A stretch of DNA of 64,000 nucleotides from an uncultured Collinsella sp. (GTDB lineage Bacteria > Actinomycetota > Coriobacteriia > Coriobacteriales > Coriobacteriaceae), in contig UQNB01000001.1 in the NCBI GenBank assembly GCA_900542235.1, positions 3,838 through 67,837 of the forward strand, in the 5' to 3' direction. The notes beneath the pieces were generated by a model. The model was given only the letters and a program-made list of their open reading frames with translations, had not been told where the DNA came from and did not search any database. Positions 1,099 through 63,385 of the stretch are shown here, piece by piece. How positions within the stretch are numbered: the stretch's first letter is position 1; every line of letters starts with the position of its first letter. The translations under genes and the position numbers were made by a program.

Positions 1099-2430
1099 AT
1101 GAAGTACTTTGGCACCGACGGCTTTCGCGGTGAGGCCAACGTTGGGCTGACGGTAGAGCACGCTTATAAGATTGGCCGTTTTGTGGGCTGGTATTACGGC
1201 GCCAACCGCGAGCGCAAGGCGCGCGTCATCGTGGGCAAGGACACCCGTCGCTCGAGCTATATGTTTGAGGCGGCGCTGGTGAGTGGCTTGGTCGCGAGCG
1301 GTGCGGACGCCTATATGCTGCACGTGATCCCCACGCCGGGCGTGGCGCATCAGGCCGTGGAGGGCTGCTTCGATTGCGGCATCATGATCAGTGCGAGCCA
1401 CAACCCGTTTTGCGATAACGGCATTAAGCTCGTCAACAGCGACGGCTTTAAGATGGACGAGGACGTGCTGGAGCTCATCGAGGACTATATCGATGGCAAG
1501 AGCGAGGTGCCGCTGGCAACGGGCAATCACATCGGCGCCACGGTGGACTACATGCAGGGCCGCAACCGCTACATTGCTTCGCTCATCGCCAGCGCGAACT
1601 TTTCGCTGCAGGGCGTCAAGATCGGCATTGACTGCGCCAACGGCTCGGCTTCCTCGGTGGCCAAGCCGGTGTTTGACGCGCTGGGCGCCGACGTGCGCGT
1701 GATCAATGCTGCGCCCGATGGCTTTAACATCAACGTCGACTGCGGCTCCACGCATATGGAGCGCCTGCAGCGCCACGTGGTGGAGCAGGGGCTGGACGTG
1801 GGCTTTGCCTACGACGGCGATGCCGACCGCTGCCTGGCCGTGGATGAGCGCGGTCGCGTGGTAGACGGCGACCAGATCCTGTACGTGTGCGGCGTGTATC
1901 TGAACAAGCACGGGCGACTCTCGGGCGGTACCGTGGTGCCGACGATTGCCAGCAACTTTGGCCTGGTCAAGTCGCTGGAGCTTGCCGGTCTGAGCGCCGT
2001 GACCAGCGGCGTGGGCGACCGTCACGTGTATGCCAAGATGCGCGAGGGCGGCTACAGCCTGGGTGGCGAGCAGACGGGCCATACGATCTTTGGCGATATC
2101 GAGCGCACGGGCGACGGCATTATGACCTCGCTGCGCGTGATGGAAGTGATTCGTGCCGAGCGCGAGACGCTCTCGCAGCTCACGGCTCCGTGCAAGCTGC
2201 TGCCGCAGGCGCAGGTGGCCGTGCACGTGGCGGACAAGGACGCCGCGCTCGAGAACATGGGCGTGCAGAACGCCATCGCCGAGGCCGAGGCCGCGCTGGC
2301 AGGCGAGGGCCGCGTACTGGTGCGCAAGAGCGGAACCGAGTCGGTGATCCGCGTTTTGGCCGAAGCCCCCGACCAAGCCGCCGCCGACGCCGCCATGAAG
2401 CGCATCGCCAACGCGCTCGAGGCTCTGTAG
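1099..2430 (+). CDS. glmM: phosphoglucosamine mutase
   Basis: 443 aa, MKYFGTDGFRGEAN N-terminus and SASHNPFCDNGIK phosphoserine loop. RBS AAGGAGAG upstream. Confidence 0.93.
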   Translation: MKYFGTDGFRGEANVGLTVEHAYKIGRFVGWYYGANRERKARVIVGKDTRRSSYMFEAALVSGLVASGADAYMLHVIPTPGVAHQAVEGCFDCGIMISASHNPFCDNGIKLVNSDGFKMDEDVLELIEDYIDGKSEVPLATGNHIGATVDYMQGRNRYIASLIASANFSLQGVKIGIDCANGSASSVAKPVFDALGADVRVINAAPDGFNINVDCGSTHMERLQRHVVEQGLDVGFAYDGDADRCLAVDERGRVVDGDQILYVCGVYLNKHGRLSGGTVVPTIASNFGLVKSLELAGLSAVTSGVGDRHVYAKMREGGYSLGGEQTGHTIFGDIERTGDGIMTSLRVMEVIRAERETLSQLTAPCKLLPQAQVAVHVADKDAALENMGVQNAIAEAEAALAGEGRVLVRKSGTESVIRVLAEAPDQAAADAAMKRIANALEAL

Positions 2431-2640
2431 TTACGCGGTTTTACCAAACCGCGTAACTACTCGACGCTGCAAACGGCCCCAAGCGGCAATCTGACGTTCA
2501 ATTTCAAGGGCGCGACCAGAAGGTCAGGGCCCTTTCATTTCACGTCACCTTGCTCGCTTAGGGTCGTTTTCGCTGACGTTGCCAAGACATTAGCGTCAAC
2601 GAACTAGTCATTGGGTACCTAGTTATTGGGTGAAAAAAGG
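2431..2640 (-). repeat. ~200-bp structured intergenic repeat, copy R1 (hairpin-first orientation follows glmM)
   Basis: Reverse complement aligns with 59690-59885 and 62480-62705. Perfect palindrome ttacgcggtttt-acc-aaaaccgcgtaa lies 1 nt after the glmM stop. Confidence 0.75.
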
Positions 2641-31017: not shown

Positions 31018-32619
31018 ATGGATCAAAGCAAGCCTTCGTTCTTTATCACGACGCCCATCTACTACGTCAACGCCGATCCGCACCTGGGCACGGCTTATTC
31101 CACCATCATCGCCGACGTTCAGGCTCGCTATCGCCGTTCCGCCGGCTATAACGTCAAGTTCCTGACCGGCATGGACGAGCACGGCGAGAAGGTCGCCGAG
31201 GCCGCAGCCAAGCATGGCATGACGCCGCAGGAGTGGACCGATAGCCAGGCCCCGCACTTCAAGGAGCTTTGGAGCAAGCTCGAGATTTCCAACGACGACT
31301 TCATCCGCACCACCGAGCCGCGCCAGCATCATGCCGTGCAGTATCTGTGGGAGCGCATGAAGGAGTCCGGTTACCTGTATAAGGGCAGCTACGACGGTTG
31401 GTATTGCGTGCCTGACGAGACCTACTTCACTGATACGCAGGTCCAGAAGGGCGACGAGGAGTACGGCAGCGTCGGCCAGCATCTATGCCCCGACTGCCAC
31501 CGTCCGCTTGAGCGCGTGCAGGAGGAGTCCTACTTCTTTAAGCTTTCCGCCTTCCAGGACAAGCTTCTCAAGCTCTATGACGAGCACCCCGACTTTGTCG
31601 AGCCTGCGTTCCGCATGAACGAGGTACGTAGCTTTGTCGAGGGCGGCCTTAACGACCTTTCCGTGAGCCGCACGAGCTTTGACTGGGGCATTCAGGTCCC
31701 GTTTGACGAGGGTCACGTGACCTACGTGTGGTTCGATGCGCTGCTCAACTATATGACGGCCGTCGGCTACGGTGTCGACACCGACGAGGCGCGTGCCGAG
31801 CTGGCCTATCGCTGGCCCGCGCAGTTCCACATCGTGGGTAAGGACATCATCCGCTTCCACTGCGTCATTTGGCCCGCCATGCTCATGGCCATCGGCGAGG
31901 CCCTGCCCGAGCACGTCTTTGCCCACGGCTTCCTGACCGTGCGCAATGCCGAGACCGGCAAGGCCGAGAAGATGTCCAAGAGCCGCGGTAACGCCATCGC
32001 TCCGCAGGACGTTATCGACATGCTGGGCGTTGAGGGCTATCGCTATTACTTTATGACCGACGTGGTCCCCGGCACCGACGGCGCCATCAGCTTCGATCGC
32101 ATGGAGCAGGTCTACAACGCCGATCTGGCCAACAGCTGGGGCAACCTCATTTCGCGCTCGCTCAACATGAGCGCAAAGTACTTTGACGGCTGCGCCCCGG
32201 CTAAACCGGCGTCTGCCGACGCGTTCGATAACCCGCTGGCAAAGATTGCCGACGGTTTGGTCGAGCGCTACATGGCCAAGATGGACATGCTCGATTACGG
32301 CGGAGCCAAGGATGAGGTCATGGAGCTCATCCATGCCGCCAACCACTACATCGAGGACTCCGAGCCCTGGGCGCTTGCCAAGGACGAGGCCAAGGCTGAC
32401 GAGCTGGCATTTGTGATTTACAACCTGCTCGAGGCCATCCGCATCGCCGCCCACCTGCTGATGCCGCTCATGCCCCAGACTTCTGTCGAGGCTCTGCGCC
32501 GCCTGTCCTGTGAGGGCGAGGCCGCGAGCGACGACCTCAAGGGCATTTGCGCTTGGGGCCTGCTTGCTGGTGGTCAGCCCGTCGAGAAGGGCGATCCGCT
32601 GTTCCCGCGTCTGGCGTAG
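31018..32619 (+). CDS. metG: methionine--tRNA ligase
   Basis: Class I HIGH-type P(I)YYVNADPHLGT and KMSKS motifs. 533 aa (no C-terminal EMAP domain). Confidence 0.93.
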   Translation: MDQSKPSFFITTPIYYVNADPHLGTAYSTIIADVQARYRRSAGYNVKFLTGMDEHGEKVAEAAAKHGMTPQEWTDSQAPHFKELWSKLEISNDDFIRTTEPRQHHAVQYLWERMKESGYLYKGSYDGWYCVPDETYFTDTQVQKGDEEYGSVGQHLCPDCHRPLERVQEESYFFKLSAFQDKLLKLYDEHPDFVEPAFRMNEVRSFVEGGLNDLSVSRTSFDWGIQVPFDEGHVTYVWFDALLNYMTAVGYGVDTDEARAELAYRWPAQFHIVGKDIIRFHCVIWPAMLMAIGEALPEHVFAHGFLTVRNAETGKAEKMSKSRGNAIAPQDVIDMLGVEGYRYYFMTDVVPGTDGAISFDRMEQVYNADLANSWGNLISRSLNMSAKYFDGCAPAKPASADAFDNPLAKIADGLVERYMAKMDMLDYGGAKDEVMELIHAANHYIEDSEPWALAKDEAKADELAFVIYNLLEAIRIAAHLLMPLMPQTSVEALRRLSCEGEAASDDLKGICAWGLLAGGQPVEKGDPLFPRLA

Positions 32620-32729
32620 AGACCGCGCGAGCGCCATATCGGCAATTTGCTGTTTAGCTGTAAGGGCATGGCCGCCACGGTCCATGCCCTTTTGTTTCAA
32701 GACGCCGCCATCATGCTAAGGAGGCAACC

Positions 32730-57496: not shown

Positions 57497-59686
57497 ATGA
57501 AGAACATCCTGCATCTGTTTAAGCGCGATGTCCAAAACGTGTCTCGCTCCGTGATCGGCTTGGTTGTCGTGATGGGCCTCATTATCGTACCGTGTCTGTA
57601 CGCGTGGTTTAACATCGCCGGCAGCTGGGATCCGTACGGCAACACCGGCAATCTTAAGATCGCCGTGGTCAACACCGACGAGGGCTACGAGAGCGATTTG
57701 ATTCCCGTCGAGGTCAACGTGGGCGAAAACGTAACCGCCACCCTGCGCGGCAACGAGAGCTTCGATTGGGTTGTGCTCAACAATCGCGAAAAGGCTATCG
57801 AGGGCGTTAAGTCGGGCGCGTACTATGCTGCCGTCGTTATCCCCAAAACGTTTAGCGCTGACATGATGACGCTTTTCTCGACCGACGTGAAACACGCTGA
57901 TATCGAGTTCTATGAGAACCAGAAAGCCAACGCCATCGCGCAGATCGTGACCGAGAAGGGTTCGAGCGCCGTTCAAAGCCAGGTTAACGAAACTTTTACC
58001 GAGACCATTACGAGCATCGGTCTTAAGACGGTGTCCAGCCTGCTCGATTACATGAGCACCGACCAGGTCAGCAACTTTATCGCCAACCTGTCCTCGACGC
58101 TCGGCGATTCGGTCCAGGACCTGCAGGACGTTCAGGCCAGCGCAACGTCGCTTGCGGGCATTTTGAGCTCCACGTCCGATTCGCTGACGTCGGCGAGCGG
58201 TATGCTCCAGCAGACGGGTACGGTCGATGAGTCGACAAAGCAGCTCATGGAACATGCCAAAAGCGGCATCGATGATTCCAAAGAAGCGCTTAAGGCGGCA
58301 AACGATGCCATCGATGCCGCAATCGATGGAAGTGCGGGTTCGTTCGACAATGTGTCTGCCGAGTTCGCGAAGGCGTTCGACACCGCAAACCAGCATGTCG
58401 ACCTTACGGTGTCCCAACTCAACGATGCCGCTGCGGCCCTCAATGCGCGCGCCAAGGATATCGATACGGTGGCCGATCAGCTCCGCAGCCTTGCCGACCA
58501 GGTGAGCGATGAGAATTTGAAGGACGGCCTCAAGTCCGCCGCGACGTCGCTGGGCAGAATCGCCGTTGAGTACCGCAACAATGCCAAGGATCTGGCGGCC
58601 ACCGCGAAGTCTCTCTCCGATAGCATGGCCGAGGTCAACAACTCGCGTGCCGAGGTCGATCAGGCCATCGCCGATGCCAAGGCCGGCATCGCGGGTGCCA
58701 AATCCGATTACGATTCCACGTTCTCGGTTAAGGCCAAGGAGCTCAAGAAGACGGTTTCGGGCATTTTGGACTCGCTTGATGGCATCTCGGGCGATCTTGA
58801 TAGCGCTGTTGCCGGTCTAACCGATGCATCCGGTTCGCTGGCAAAGGGCCTCTCCAAGGCTGCAAAGCTGGTCAACAAGGCTTCCGATCAGCTGGGTGAA
58901 GCGTCCGATAAGATCAGTGCCTTTAAGGACGAGCTCGACGGTGCCCTTATGTCGGACGATCTGGCCACGATCAAGACGATGATTGGCAATGATCCCGAGG
59001 GTCTGGCCGTGTCGCTTTCCGGTCCCGTCGCGCTCGATCGCAAGCCGGTCTATCCGATCCGCAATTACGGTTCGGCCATGGCGCCGTTCTATACGATCCT
59101 GTCGCTGTGGGTGGGCTCGATCGTGCTGGCAGCCATGATGAAGGTCTCGGTTGACGATGAGCTCATCAACGAGCTCATCCCCGTGCGCCTGCACGAGATC
59201 TACCTGGGCCGCTACCTGTTCTTTGGAGGTCTGGCCCTGCTGCAGGCGACACTCGTGTGCGCGGGCGACATCCTGTTCTTTGGCATCCAATGCGACAACC
59301 CGCTGCAGTTTGTGCTGGCGGGCTGGGTCGCGAGTCTCGTGTTCTCCAATATCGTCTACACGCTTACGGTTTCGTTTGGCGATATCGGCAAGGCTTTGGC
59401 CGTTGTGCTGCTGGTCATGCAGGTCGGCGGTTCGGGCGGTACGTTCCCCATCGAGATGACCGGCCCTGTGTTCCAGGCGATCTATCCGTTCCTGCCGTTT
59501 ACCCATGGCATTAACGCCATGCATGCCGCCATGGCTGGCGCCTACCATATGGAGTACTGGGTTGAGCTGGGCATTCTGGCGAGCTATCTGATTCCGTCGC
59601 TGGCACTGGGCGTCGTCTTCCGCCGTCCGGTCATCAAGGCCAACGACTGGATTATCGAAAAGCTGGAGAGTACTAAATTAATCTAG
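57497..59686 (+). CDS. YhgE/Pip domain membrane protein (paralog 2)
   Basis: MKNILHLFKRDVQNV...PCLYAWFNIAGSWDPYGNTG with the same architecture. TAAATG junction with paralog 1. RBS AAAGGAGGTGAGG. Confidence 0.85.
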   Translation: MKNILHLFKRDVQNVSRSVIGLVVVMGLIIVPCLYAWFNIAGSWDPYGNTGNLKIAVVNTDEGYESDLIPVEVNVGENVTATLRGNESFDWVVLNNREKAIEGVKSGAYYAAVVIPKTFSADMMTLFSTDVKHADIEFYENQKANAIAQIVTEKGSSAVQSQVNETFTETITSIGLKTVSSLLDYMSTDQVSNFIANLSSTLGDSVQDLQDVQASATSLAGILSSTSDSLTSASGMLQQTGTVDESTKQLMEHAKSGIDDSKEALKAANDAIDAAIDGSAGSFDNVSAEFAKAFDTANQHVDLTVSQLNDAAAALNARAKDIDTVADQLRSLADQVSDENLKDGLKSAATSLGRIAVEYRNNAKDLAATAKSLSDSMAEVNNSRAEVDQAIADAKAGIAGAKSDYDSTFSVKAKELKKTVSGILDSLDGISGDLDSAVAGLTDASGSLAKGLSKAAKLVNKASDQLGEASDKISAFKDELDGALMSDDLATIKTMIGNDPEGLAVSLSGPVALDRKPVYPIRNYGSAMAPFYTILSLWVGSIVLAAMMKVSVDDELINELIPVRLHEIYLGRYLFFGGLALLQATLVCAGDILFFGIQCDNPLQFVLAGWVASLVFSNIVYTLTVSFGDIGKALAVVLLVMQVGGSGGTFPIEMTGPVFQAIYPFLPFTHGINAMHAAMAGAYHMEYWVELGILASYLIPSLALGVVFRRPVIKANDWIIEKLESTKLI

Positions 59687-59689
59687 CGC

Positions 59690-59885
59690 AACAATGTAAA
59701 CGCTGATACTGCGGCAATGTCAGCGAGCGAGCCGCATTTGCGCCAAGGTGACGTGAAATGAAAGGGCGCTGACCTTCTGGTCGCGCCCTTGAAATTGAAC
59801 GTCAGATTGCCGCTTAGGGGCGTTTGCAGCGTCGAGCAGTTGCGGCGTTTGGTAAAACGCCGCAACGAACTACCGCGTAACTCCC
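59690..59885 (+). repeat. ~200-bp structured intergenic repeat, copy R2
   Basis: Aligns with R3 and the reverse complement of R1. Palindrome gttgcggcgttt-ggta-aaacgccgcaac ends 13 nt from the lipoprotein gene 3' end. Confidence 0.75.
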
Positions 59886-60443
59886 CTAGTTCATCATTGC
59901 ATTCATCATCTCGGTGGTTGCGGAATCGTCAGCAGACCACTCGCCATCGTCATTGGCGGTGTACTTGAAGGTAACCTTGGTGTCCTTGGTCTTAGCGGCC
60001 TTGGTCACGTCGACCATGACCTGGCCGGCCATCTTGTACAGGTCGTCCTCGGAAGGCATCGTATCGAGCGCCGCGATCTTCTCCTGATACTGGGTGGCGA
60101 AATCTTCAACGATCTTGTTCATGGACTTGCAGGTAATGGTGACATCGGCAGTCGCGGTGCCCTTGTCCTCGTCGACCGTCACATCGCCGATCTTGTAGTC
60201 AAAACCCTCGAGATAGCTCTTGGCGTACTCCTTGGGATCGATGCCCAGCTGCTCGAACTCGTCGCCCGAGGCCTCTTCCAGGCCGGCGAGGAAGTCGTCG
60301 CCGCCGTTCTTGACCTCGTCAAACTGCGTCGTAAGATCCTCGGTGATGAGCTCCTCAACCGAAGGACCTCCGCAGCCGGAAAGCACAACCACGCACGCGA
60401 CCAGAACAGCCATCAGGGGCGCAAGCAGCAGCTTCTTCTTCAT
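59886..60443 (-). CDS. lipoprotein (signal peptide with LSGC lipobox)
   Basis: MKKKLLLAPLMAVLVACVVVLSGCGG. RBS GGGAGG. The 60467 upstream start is rejected. Confidence 0.75.
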   Translation of the reverse strand: MKKKLLLAPLMAVLVACVVVLSGCGGPSVEELITEDLTTQFDEVKNGGDDFLAGLEEASGDEFEQLGIDPKEYAKSYLEGFDYKIGDVTVDEDKGTATADVTITCKSMNKIVEDFATQYQEKIAALDTMPSEDDLYKMAGQVMVDVTKAAKTKDTKVTFKYTANDDGEWSADDSATTEMMNAMMN

Positions 60444-61487: not shown

Positions 61488-61522
61488 GTGCCAAAATGAA
61501 CCTGTCCCTTTTTGGCAGGTTT
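61488..61522 (+). repeat. third copy of the ~35-nt hairpin repeat (ccaaaatgaacctgtccctttttggcaggtt)
   Basis: 31/32 identical to copy B at 37111-37146. Sits 20 nt upstream of the rpiR-like start codon. Confidence 0.75.
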
Positions 61523-61541
61523 GGCGAGTGTGGGAGTTCGC

Positions 61542-62477
61542 ATGGATATCAAACGCAAGATCACCGAAGCGCAGGGCCTCACCCCCACCGAGCAACAGCT
61601 CGGCATTGCAGCCTTTGCTATCGGCGAGGACATCCGCGGACTTTCTATTAAGGAATTTGCCACGCGCGCCAACGTTTCGGTCGCGAGCGTCCACCGTTTT
61701 TGCAAAAAGCTCGGCCTCGAGGGCTTCAAAGATCTCAAGGTCGAGCTTATTCGCTTAGCAACCGAGACGGGAAACCGGCGCGACGTGGATATCAACTTTC
61801 CCTTCGACGCCACGTCCACCCCTGCGCAGGTTATGGAGCGCATGGAGGGACTCTACCAGACCACGCTGGCCGAAACGCAGGAGCTGCTCGACCCCACGCA
61901 ACTTGACCATGCCGCCAAGCTCATCGCGAACGCCCGACAGGTCGACATCTACACGGGCTCGCACAACCTCTATCCGGCTGGCATGTTCCGCGATCGCCTG
62001 CTCTCCGCCGGCAAGAGCGCCACATGCTACGGCAACATCGAGGCACAGGTGCGCACGGCGCTTACCTCGGATTCAGACCGCGCGGCGATCGTTATCTCCT
62101 ACAGCGGCCTTGCGCCCAACCTCAAGGACATCTTGCCGACCCTCAGCAGCCGGCATGTCCTGGTCATCATCATCGGCACGCCCTACTGCGCGCGCATTCA
62201 CCCCGGCTTTGCCGCCTACCTTACGGTGAGTGACCATGAGAGCATGACGCACCGCATTACGCAGTTCGCCAGCCACATCGCCGTGCAATACGTGCTCGAT
62301 TCGCTCTACAGCAGCTACTTCGCCAAAGACTACGCCCGCTGCGCCGAATTCCTGGAGCGCTCGTTCCCCCTGCACCCGCCTGCCCGGACTCAAGTAGCGA
62401 CGAGCGTGTATAATCTCCCACTTTCAACCCGCACACAGGTCAAAACCGGAAGATTATCCACGCTCACTTCTAACTAG
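61542..62477 (+). CDS. RpiR/MurR-family transcriptional regulator (HTH + SIS)
   Basis: N-terminal HTH_6 (SIKEFATRANVSVASVHRFCKKLGLEGF) and a SIS domain. RBS GGGAG. ATG 61512 is the alternative. Confidence 0.8.
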   Translation: MDIKRKITEAQGLTPTEQQLGIAAFAIGEDIRGLSIKEFATRANVSVASVHRFCKKLGLEGFKDLKVELIRLATETGNRRDVDINFPFDATSTPAQVMERMEGLYQTTLAETQELLDPTQLDHAAKLIANARQVDIYTGSHNLYPAGMFRDRLLSAGKSATCYGNIEAQVRTALTSDSDRAAIVISYSGLAPNLKDILPTLSSRHVLVIIIGTPYCARIHPGFAAYLTVSDHESMTHRITQFASHIAVQYVLDSLYSSYFAKDYARCAEFLERSFPLHPPARTQVATSVYNLPLSTRTQVKTGRLSTLTSN

Positions 62478-62479
62478 TC

Positions 62480-62705
62480 ATTGAGGACGTTCTTAAACGA
62501 CTAGTCAAACAAGAACGTCCCCAATGACTACTACGGCAACACCGATGTTTTGGCAACGCCAGCGAGCGGGTCGCATTTGTGACAAGGTGACGTGAAACGA
62601 AAGGGCGCTGACCTTCCGGTCGCGCCCTTGAAGTTGAACGTCAGATTGTCCAAATGCGGCCCGCGCAGCGTCGAGCTGTTACGGCGTTTGGTAAAACGCC
62701 GTAAC
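62480..62705 (+). repeat. ~200-bp structured intergenic repeat, copy R3 (with an extra 20-bp inverted repeat at its 5' end)
   Basis: Aligns with R2. Palindrome gttacggcgttt-ggta-aaacgccgtaac ends 5 nt from the pyrE 3' end. IR tagtcattgaggacgttctt/aagaacgtccccaatgacta at 62476-62530. Confidence 0.75.
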
Positions 62706-63385
62706 TAACGAGCTCCGTACTGCTCGTAGTAGGCATCGATGGCGGCCTTGAGCTCGTCATCGATGACAACCTTGCCGTCGATCTCGTGGTTGTAGAGGGT
62801 CTCGACGACCTCGGCCATGGAAACGATGCTCGCGACGGGGAAACCGTACTTGGCCTCGATCTCCTTCTGAGCGGTGGTCACGCCACCCTTGCCGACCTCC
62901 ATGCGGTTGAGAGACACGATCAGGCCCTTGATCTCGACATCGGCAGCAGCCTTAACCTTGGGATAGGTCTCGTCGATGGACTTGCCGCTGGTGGTGACGT
63001 CCTCGACCATGATCACACGGTCGCCGTCCTTGGGCTCGTAACCCAGCAGGTTGCCCTTATCGGCACCGTGGTCCTTGGCCTCCTTGCGGTCGCAGCAGTA
63101 CTTGACCTCCTTGCCGTACAGCTCGTGGTAGGCAATTGCGGTAACAACAGCCAGCGGAATACCCTTGTAGGCCGGCCCAAACAGGACGTCAAAGTCGTCG
63201 CCAAAGTTATCGTGGATGGCCTGGGCGTAATACTCTCCCAGCTTCTTGAGCTGATAGCCCGTCACGTAAGCGCCGGCGTTCATAAAAAACGGGGACTGGC
63301 GGCCGCTCTTGAGCGTAAAGCTGCCGAACTTAAGAACGTCGGACTCAACCATAAACTTGATGAACTCTTGCTTGTAAGCCTCCAT
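62705..63385 (-). CDS. pyrE: orotate phosphoribosyltransferase
   Basis: 226 aa with PRPP-binding motif VIMVEDVTTSGKS, of the long-type OPRTase found in Actinobacteria. Confidence 0.85.
   Translation of the reverse strand: MEAYKQEFIKFMVESDVLKFGSFTLKSGRQSPFFMNAGAYVTGYQLKKLGEYYAQAIHDNFGDDFDVLFGPAYKGIPLAVVTAIAYHELYGKEVKYCCDRKEAKDHGADKGNLLGYEPKDGDRVIMVEDVTTSGKSIDETYPKVKAAADVEIKGLIVSLNRMEVGKGGVTTAQKEIEAKYGFPVASIVSMAEVVETLYNHEIDGKVVIDDELKAAIDAYYEQYGAR

Follow-up and report, generated by a model that had tools for sequence, protein, structure and literature searches.

A Collinsella-specific structured repeat that abuts stop codons and carries a predicted terminator

The SPRITE elements of Streptococcus pneumoniae, of which there are ~30 copies, consist of a long hairpin with a U-rich tract, are enriched near the 3' ends of coding sequences and have been proposed to be co-opted terminators (PMC3049150). 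Compared by description only, SPRITE seems to be the nearest described counterpart to the repeat family of Collinsella that we report here. Both elements are interspersed, ~100 to 200 bp long, terminator-like in their fold, located at gene 3' ends and present in tens of copies, and for neither has a target-site duplication or a parent been identified. However, the two are unrelated in sequence and come from different phyla, and the Collinsella element is G+C-rich, with a much longer compensated rod, a separate hairpin that abuts the stop codon at 0 to 5 nt, REP-like units on its 5' side and several subfamilies with wholly replaced stems, whereas SPRITE obeys no strict rule of distance or orientation to the stop codon.

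The REP and BIME sequences of enterobacteria and Pseudomonas are also short GC-rich palindromes that lie past genes and form mosaics with conserved linkers; like the Collinsella element, they are found between convergent or tandem genes, where both would be co-transcribed. The small units of the Collinsella element resemble REPs further in having been struck by an IS110-family element, but there are tens of copies rather than hundreds, no RAYT gene was found in a 0.9-Mb Collinsella record (described below) and BIMEs have no counterpart of the 105-nt rod core. In a survey of tagged REPs, the stems were 8 to 9 bp long and adjoined by a GTAG or CGTC tag; no transposase is dedicated to the CGTC-tagged REPs, and the survey reported none of them from the Actinomycetota (Di Nocera et al. 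2013, PMC3733652). The Collinsella element likewise has a nearly invariant CGTC close to its terminal palindrome, but a gap of 5 nt separates this upstream tag from the stem, and the palindrome, 28 nt long, has a stem of 12 bp instead of 8 to 9 bp. The BOX elements of S. pneumoniae (boxA-boxB(n)-boxC) share with it a modular build, a variable number of internal units, a long hairpin, a non-autonomous character and a location within transcription units; they are unrelated in sequence, however, and have terminal inverted repeats and target-site duplications with neither terminator polarity nor stop codon anchoring. ERIC and Correia-type elements are imperfect palindromes of ~130 to 160 bp at gene 3' ends, with TA-associated ends, and co-transcription and effects on mRNA processing would be further features in common, but the Collinsella core has no demonstrable terminal repeats or TA duplication and keeps a strict orientation to the upstream gene. 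What is new is that a separate hairpin is anchored at 0 to 5 nt to the stop codon, that orientation is strict and that compensation runs so deep; the near-zero hairpin-stop spacing is stricter than that reported for REP, BOX or SPRITE.

The window, by which we mean the whole 64-kb stretch of DNA that was analyzed (G+C content, 60.5%), holds three copies of the element, at approximately 2430-2630 (minus strand), 59687-59866 and 62477-62705, which match a shared model with E values of 1e-26 to 1e-71. An earlier note on this DNA had pointed to these three repeats, each ending in a 12-bp perfect palindrome with compensated arms, and reading and alignment bore out both points. An nhmmer profile of the three copies matched them with E values of 6e-65 to 2e-71 over 194 to 214 nt and found no further convincing copy in the 64-kb window. 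A covariance model built on 76 distinct copies scored the three at 133 to 173 bits (E = 3e-26 to 7e-35), although these are training members that match by construction. The copies are alike from the terminal palindrome to ~40 to 100 nt upstream of the motif CAGCGA, with mutual identity of only 75 to 85%. They are flanked by glmM (TIGR01455) and an M32 carboxypeptidase gene (copy 1), by genes for a YhgE/Pip-family membrane protein and a DUF5105 lipoprotein (copy 2) and by an RpiR-family regulator gene and pyrE (TIGR00336) (copy 3). As these flanking genes are unrelated, segmental duplication, which the note had raised as an alternative, does not account for the copies. We refer to the strand that reads 5'-CAGCGA...GTTACGCGGTTTGGTAAAACCGCGTAAC-3' as the E strand; it is antisense to the abutted gene and is the minus strand in copy 1. 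The parts of the three copies are as follows.

2428-2430, plus strand: TAG stop codon of glmM; base 2430 is its G and is common to the terminal hairpin of copy 1
2430-2457, minus strand: 12-bp terminal hairpin of copy 1, GTTACGCGGTTTGGTAAAACCGCGTAAC in the minus-strand reading, with arms GTTACGCGG/CCGCGTAAC
2466-2573, minus strand: long rod of copy 1, with a 14-bp outer stem (variant B), the inner stem TGACGT/ACGTCA and tandem G.A loops
2506-2534, minus strand: apical hairpin of copy 1, within the rod
2533-2543, plus strand: terminator-like part of copy 1, the T-rich tract TTTCATTTCAC, which comes after the apical hairpin on the strand of glmM
2577-2630, minus strand: 5' leader TTCGTTGACGCTAATGTCTTGGCAACG of copy 1 with degenerate remnants of small units, CCAATGACTAG
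2632-2674: terminator of the M32 carboxypeptidase gene, at which the leader/unit stretch of copy 1 stops
59687-59719, plus strand: 5' leader of copy 2, directly after the TAG stop codon (59684-59686) of the YhgE/Pip-family gene
59720-59866, plus strand: core of copy 2, with a rod whose 5' arm is D-type and whose 3' arm is B-type, the tail GCAGCGTCGAG and the terminal hairpin
59839-59866, plus strand: terminal hairpin of copy 2, with arms GTTGCGGCG/CGCCGCAAC
59873-59888, plus strand: remnant half-palindrome CCGCGTAAC (59873-59881), then CTA (59886-59888), the reverse-complement stop codon of the DUF5105 lipoprotein gene
62475-62477: TAG stop codon of the RpiR-family gene, the G of which is the first base of unit 1 of copy 3
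62477-62530, plus strand: two small hairpin units of copy 3 in opposite orientations (62477-62501 and 62504-62528), with TA between and after them
62531-62558, plus strand: leader CTACGGCAACACCGATGTTTTGGCAACG of copy 3
62559-62705, plus strand: core of copy 3, with rod (variant A outer stem), tail and terminal hairpin
62601-62629, plus strand: apical hairpin of copy 3
62678-62705, plus strand: terminal hairpin of copy 3, with arms GTTACGGCG/CGCCGTAAC
62705-62707: stop codon of pyrE (CTA); base 62705 is common to the terminal hairpin of copy 3

Copy 2 is a chimera of subfamilies in which a D-type 5' arm sits on a B-type 3' arm and the outer stem has been lost; it is a recombinant of two neighboring copies, each of which is intact in other genomes. 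Beside copy 3, the RpiR-family open reading frame (window positions 61512-62477) passes a TAG in another frame and, ~80 nt on, ends exactly at the TAG that supplies the first G of the first unit, so that its C-terminal tail may have been shaped by the insertion. An apparent fourth copy at 32625-32706 (nhmmer E = 4e-6, but covariance-model E = 0.49) was rejected as an ordinary terminator. This intrinsic terminator (AAGGGCATGG...CCATGCCCTTTTGTTTC), which follows the gene at 31018-32619, is weakly similar to the apical hairpin in matching orientation, a likeness hinting that the center of the element may have been derived from a normal terminator. A small open reading frame or a toxin-antitoxin locus was ruled out, as there is no conserved open reading frame.

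The element is a structured cassette of ~150 to 250 bp and a mosaic of several modules, rather than the single repeat that had been described. On the E strand, the order is 0 to 4 small REP-like hairpin units, a leader, the 105-nt rod, a CGTC-containing tail (GCAGCGTCGAG) and the 12-bp terminal hairpin. The small units are ~25 nt each, occur in either orientation and have the conserved loop AAGRAACGTCCCCAA; their stems covary (GTCATT/AATGAC, CTCATT/AATGAG, GGCAC/GTGCC and GGCAG/CTGCC), and those of the GTCATT type have 5- to 6-bp inverted ends with TA on both sides. The leader (~30 nt) reads GGCAACGCCGATGTTTTGGCAACG or variants of it. The rod starts with CAGCGA and comprises a 14-bp outer stem, CAAGG, the inner stem TGACGT/ACGTCA and two G.A-rich internal loops, and it is capped by the GC-rich apical hairpin. 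Modules are duplicated at loci L103, L065 and L071 and deleted at L089 and in the proB copy. An AGGGCGC...GCGCCCT internal hairpin, as noted earlier, is present in all three window copies, with one C.C mismatch in copy 1.

The compensatory changes first seen in the terminal palindrome proved to extend over the whole element. Across the rod in a 76-sequence alignment (A2), 98.5% of cells are standard pairs and 21 pairs have changed on both sides; none of 500 shuffled controls attained the observed pairing and covariation, and slid controls paired at only 30 to 44%. At least four wholly different, fully complementary versions (A to D) of the outer stem occur, and in the wider family the inner stem has been swapped as a whole for TGCCTT/AAGGCA and TGGCAT/ATGACA. 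Some subfamilies have a Shine-Dalgarno-like GAGGAGG 5' of the apical hairpin (GAAAGAGGAGGG...), which on the gene strand is the pyrimidine tract CCCTCCTCTTTC (examples at L121:3100-3170 and at 242,255-242,305 and 681,2xx of NZ_OY725717.1); since no start codon follows it, it is probably just the complement of the T/C tract.

A pattern scan with one genome per species detected the family in at least 120 Collinsella genomes and at ~25 gene ends among the matches listed, nearly all of which are from Collinsella. For an unbiased census, we applied the covariance model to NZ_OY725717.1, a PGAP-annotated 0.9-Mb record of Collinsella aerofaciens, and found 13 copies, which follow proB, a gene for an M20 peptidase, a gene for an SDR oxidoreductase, queA, tyrS, map, rpoC, lysS, a gene for a 2-hydroxyacid dehydrogenase, a DAHP synthase gene, a hexose kinase gene, lacB and hisF. 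Thirteen copies in 0.9 Mb suggests ~35 copies per genome. The record, the one entry for C. aerofaciens in the plasmid collection, is named "plasmid 6" (PLSDB/RefSeq), yet it carries rpoBC, most of the ribosomal-protein operons, recA, ftsK, dnaE and many aminoacyl-tRNA synthetase genes, and with these chromosomal core genes it must be a fragment of the chromosome and no plasmid. Functional enrichment for translation genes was hinted at by the biased locus sample, but only 4 or 5 of the 13 census copies fit it, and we do not claim it.

At gathering thresholds, Rfam 15 identified only three tRNAs in the whole window; with copies 2 and 3 at E values up to 10, it returned chance-level matches far under threshold, and the Collinsella-1 motif was not among them. 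Searches of a phage collection gave no match to the family, and the literature on Collinsella yielded no description of such a repeat, so the possibility left by the earlier note, that the element belongs to a described family, finds no match in either Rfam or the literature. The family is a real, conserved, previously undescribed and genus-specific repeat of Collinsella. The pattern scan of IMG/VR found one contig, which is orthologous to the lipoprotein site of the window (copy 2). On that contig (L207:5252-6760), a 502-aa reverse transcriptase (RVT_1) adjoins a PTS EIIA gene; the window has the RpiR-family gene there.

The position of the element relative to genes follows strict rules. The same end of the element lies -1 to +5 nt from an annotated stop codon on the opposite strand in all 13 census copies, and for the 12 that have a terminal hairpin (the 13th is without one) this distance applies to the hairpin itself. 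At the listed Collinsella loci, for which genes were called with our own codon-usage gene caller, a convergent gene lies past the terminal hairpin in 91 of 104 instances, and in 83 of these 91 the distance between the end of the hairpin and the first base of the stop codon is -1 to +3 nt (among the matches listed, 120 loci). The earlier note had taken the element for a 3'-UTR-like sequence or a small non-autonomous REP- or MITE-like repeat past the stop codon in the orientation of the gene, and this description holds for the census as a whole. It had also placed the palindrome 1 to 13 nt past the stop on the strand of the gene; placement and strand stand, but the distances are -1 nt at glmM and pyrE and 19 nt at the lipoprotein gene, where the gap contains the remnant half-palindrome CCGCGTAAC. 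In the census, all nine copies between tandem genes have the same orientation (9:0), in the order upstream stop codon, hairpin, rod, units and next gene, and the remaining four lie between convergent genes, with none in the opposite orientation; the ratio for tandem genes at the other listed loci is 44:5. At its other end, the element lacks a constant neighbor (45 co-oriented gene ends versus 44 divergent starts at the listed loci). Convergent spacers are often filled from stop to stop by the mosaic, as for copies 2 and 3, the proB copy and L131.

Stop codon usage in the 120 loci plus the window, as given by the same gene caller, is 59% TAG, 38% TAA and 3% TGA (in the window alone, 8/46), which is unusual at 60% G+C. 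The idea that the element supplies the stop codon was dropped, as the frequency of TAG at abutted stops (73% versus the 59% background) is too weak a signal. There is an association with G+C skew, in that the C-rich strand is the E strand at 19 of 25 sites, but the strong gene-strand bias of this genome explains this, and we rejected a replication-strand bias as an independent signal.

The earlier note had argued that the element is not a canonical terminator since no U-run follows. That is true of the terminal palindrome only: on the gene strand, the apical hairpin (ΔG of about -20 kcal/mol) is directly followed by TTTCATTTC or TTTCGTTTC, a site that a generic scanner missed because of a bulge in the stem. 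With a test that called for a hairpin with a ΔG of -10 or lower followed by at least 5 T's in 8 nt, the gene strand was positive in 76 of 76 copies and the E strand in none (0/76). Among the census copies, subfamilies of which differ in sequence, the gene strand was positive in 10 of 13, the other 3 failing the strict T-tract test, and the E strand in 2 of 13 (the rpoC and lysS copies), both of which are bidirectional. For calibration, 360 ordinary gene ends gave 142 positives in the sense and 81 in the antisense direction, with a median ΔG of -21.8. At L131, the element is the whole spacer between the convergent glmM and M32 peptidase genes, and there is no other terminator; in related genera, ordinary terminators follow glmM. 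By sequence criteria, the element thus carries a predicted intrinsic (Rho-independent) terminator that points in the direction of the abutted gene.

Comparison of orthologous copies revealed purifying selection. At eight sites, divergence relative to the third codon positions of the adjacent gene was 0.15 to 0.36 (the eighth site, with only 4 sequences, gave 0.61), such that the elements diverge 3 to 6 times more slowly than third codon positions; the glmM set, which was gathered via the protein rather than the element, gave 0.052 versus 0.144. Site-specific variants are common to different species. This slow divergence of orthologues, together with the 75 to 85% identity of paralogues, indicates old, constrained insertions that are neither a recent burst nor homogenized. 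Signs of past movement are nonetheless seen in the occurrence of the element at ~25 unrelated sites among the matches listed, in the chimeric copy and in a nested or truncated pair (L013 and L082). Furthermore, the YhgE/Pip spacer contains an element of opposite orientation and different subfamily in L075 and L119 compared with L004, L070 and L110, and different subfamilies lie behind the same release-factor gene. In three metagenomic contigs (L127, L152 and L153) with glmM 99% identical, the core is absent and one small unit is kept, and L138 retains a deletion remnant, TAGTTACGCGG. The empty and filled glmM sites read TA-AGG-TA and TA-[element]-TA, which fits no simple target-duplication model; target-site duplications at the ends of the copies, suggested by the earlier note, were sought for the core, and neither a clear one nor a consistent terminal repeat could be defined from these sites. 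No autonomous parent with the same ends was found in 886 kb of listed loci, the 0.9-Mb record or the window. Two candidate origins were discarded. Unrelated hairpins flank both of the IS200/IS605 tnpA genes in the 0.9-Mb record, which speaks against a RAYT/IS200 parent there, and a palindrome element derived from IS200/IS605 fails for want of a conserved flanking motif and because its hairpin arrangement differs. How the element was mobilized in the past we can only infer. The traits of a MITE that it does display are presence/absence polymorphism at orthologous sites, many unrelated sites and a lack of coding capacity.

On balance, we lean toward the view that the family is a formerly mobile, non-autonomous repeat that selection now keeps as a terminator or 3'-boundary module of transcription units, and we hold this view with some reserve. 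A transcript of the abutted gene would present, in order, the stop codon, a 12-bp GC-rich hairpin within 0 to 5 nt, a linker of ~25 nt, a GC-rich hairpin and the T-rich tract. RNA polymerase leaving the gene would then terminate at the internal hairpin and U-tract, and the stop-proximal hairpin would shield the trimmed 3' end of the mRNA; since a ribosome that terminates at the stop codon would cover that hairpin with its footprint, there may be coupling to translation termination as well. Both stems of the rod, inner and outer, would be a legacy of the mobile past, as would the REP-like units upstream, unless these parts have a second role, for instance in protein binding or in the processing of RNA from read-through or antisense transcription. 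Several observations count against a gene-strand terminator. The 0- to 5-nt spacing is not needed for termination, the T-tract test fails in 3 of the 13 census copies, and three diverged copies lie within operons (hisF-hisI, map-infA and lacB-epimerase), in which polar effects would be expected of a strong terminator. Moreover, termination at the apical hairpin would leave the distal half of the rod out of the sense transcript, yet it is the inner and outer stems that covary most, so the covariation of the rod needs another cause, candidates for which are read-through or antisense RNA, single-stranded DNA and template-switch correction of palindromes.

The E strand shows an excess of G.U over A.C in stems (59 versus 11) and a fold stabler by ~9 kcal/mol in 76 of 76 copies, both of which also speak against the gene-strand reading and would suit a functional molecule that is a structured noncoding RNA of ~150 to 300 nt transcribed from that strand, with the units at its start, the rod in the middle and the terminal hairpin at its end. 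Such RNAs would form a multicopy family with a 3' end that abuts the convergent gene and perhaps continues as antisense to the 3' end of that gene. The conserved internal loops are tandem G.A on the E strand, the inner stem keeps pairing despite its full replacement, the 21 pairs changed on both sides speak for the same fold, and conservation is near that of first and second codon positions. We nevertheless consider this unlikely. There is no sigma-70 promoter-like sequence at a conserved upstream distance, the upstream context being half co-oriented gene ends and half divergent starts; transcription would run head-on into rpoC, lysS, tyrS and map; part of the fold asymmetry is merely the A-rich complement of the gene-strand T-tract; the zero spacing to the stop codon is left unaccounted for; and there is no match to an Rfam family. 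The stop position and orientation rules, the T-tract, the lack of an antisense promoter and the head-on placement at rpoC and lysS all favor the gene strand instead. A purely selfish miniature transposable element, with hairpins that serve transposition by way of single-stranded DNA or terminal inverted repeats, strikes us as less probable again. It would explain the multitude of sites, some of them empty or reduced to remnants, the chimeric, nested and flipped copies and the TA flanks of the GTCATT-type units, and would make of the TA-containing stops (TAG and TAA are 97% of stop codons) safe targets in a compact genome of 60% G+C, the more so as the ends of the element open with G, so that TA plus G restores a TAG stop. 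The core, however, is without a clear target-site duplication or terminal inverted repeats, no transposase is linked to it (the hairpins flanking the tnpA genes of the 0.9-Mb record being unrelated), a 9:0 orientation bias is unexpected for symmetric insertion at TA and the combination of diverged paralogues with site-specific, slowly evolving orthologues is that of old, constrained copies and not of a recent burst.

The E. coli BIMEs provide a precedent for binding of gyrase and nucleoid protein. A protein-binding module that acts as DNA at operon ends, with gyrase, a nucleoid protein or a recombinase site as candidates, would accord with AACGTC-type motifs that recur from the units and leader to the rod and tail, with the presence of small units in either orientation, with the 11+6+11 layout of the terminal palindrome and with the presence of copies where highly expressed operons end (rpoBC, lysS and tyrS, for example). 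We regard it as the least credible of these explanations, since the stem sequences are free to vary while pairing is kept and G.U is preferred, which suggests that a single strand folds and not that a duplex is recognized, and since no candidate protein has been identified. It is also rather improbable, in our estimate, that the rod and the stop-abutting hairpin form an RNA device recognized in trans, or that an antisense RNA constitutes a new multicopy class of structured RNA. In the former case, each genome would have ~35 housekeeping genes (for aminoacyl-tRNA synthetases, rpoC, map, queA, glmM, pyrE and genes of amino acid biosynthesis) that share a 3'-end element read by a dedicated protein, an RNase or the terminating ribosome, and a genus-wide posttranscriptional regulon would have arisen from a domesticated mobile element. 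T-box-like RNAs, retrons, integron attC sites, Xer/dif sites, omega RNA and bridge RNA were dropped on anatomy alone: neither a reverse transcriptase nor an integrase nor TnpB is linked to the element, its loops are conserved and of small size, and none of the models matched.

Collinsella is an abundant genus of the human gut with links to health, and to our knowledge almost nothing has been described of its RNA biology. Because the family marks the 3' ends of ~35 core genes per genome, it provides a handle for the mapping of transcription unit ends and an entry to termination and mRNA decay in the Coriobacteriia, and it bears on how a mobile palindrome turns into a host terminator. REPs within 15 nt of stop codons reportedly affect translation (a finding attributed to Liang, Rudd and Deutscher in 2015), and the near-zero spacing seen here makes the element a direct testbed for coupling to translation termination. 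Annotation and strain-typing pipelines should mask or model the family.

A further observation concerns the small units. An IS110-family insertion sequence adjacent to the element was rejected as its parent, as it is an insertion into a unit: it splits one unit inside the conserved loop (GAACGTCC^CCAACGAC) at 457,880-459,300 of NZ_OY725717.1 (L211/L212), and its right-hand junction recurs at a different locus of another genome (L078:1-480). IS110 and IS1111 elements target REPs in other bacteria, and from these junctions the IS110-family element of Collinsella appears to target the ~25-nt small units.
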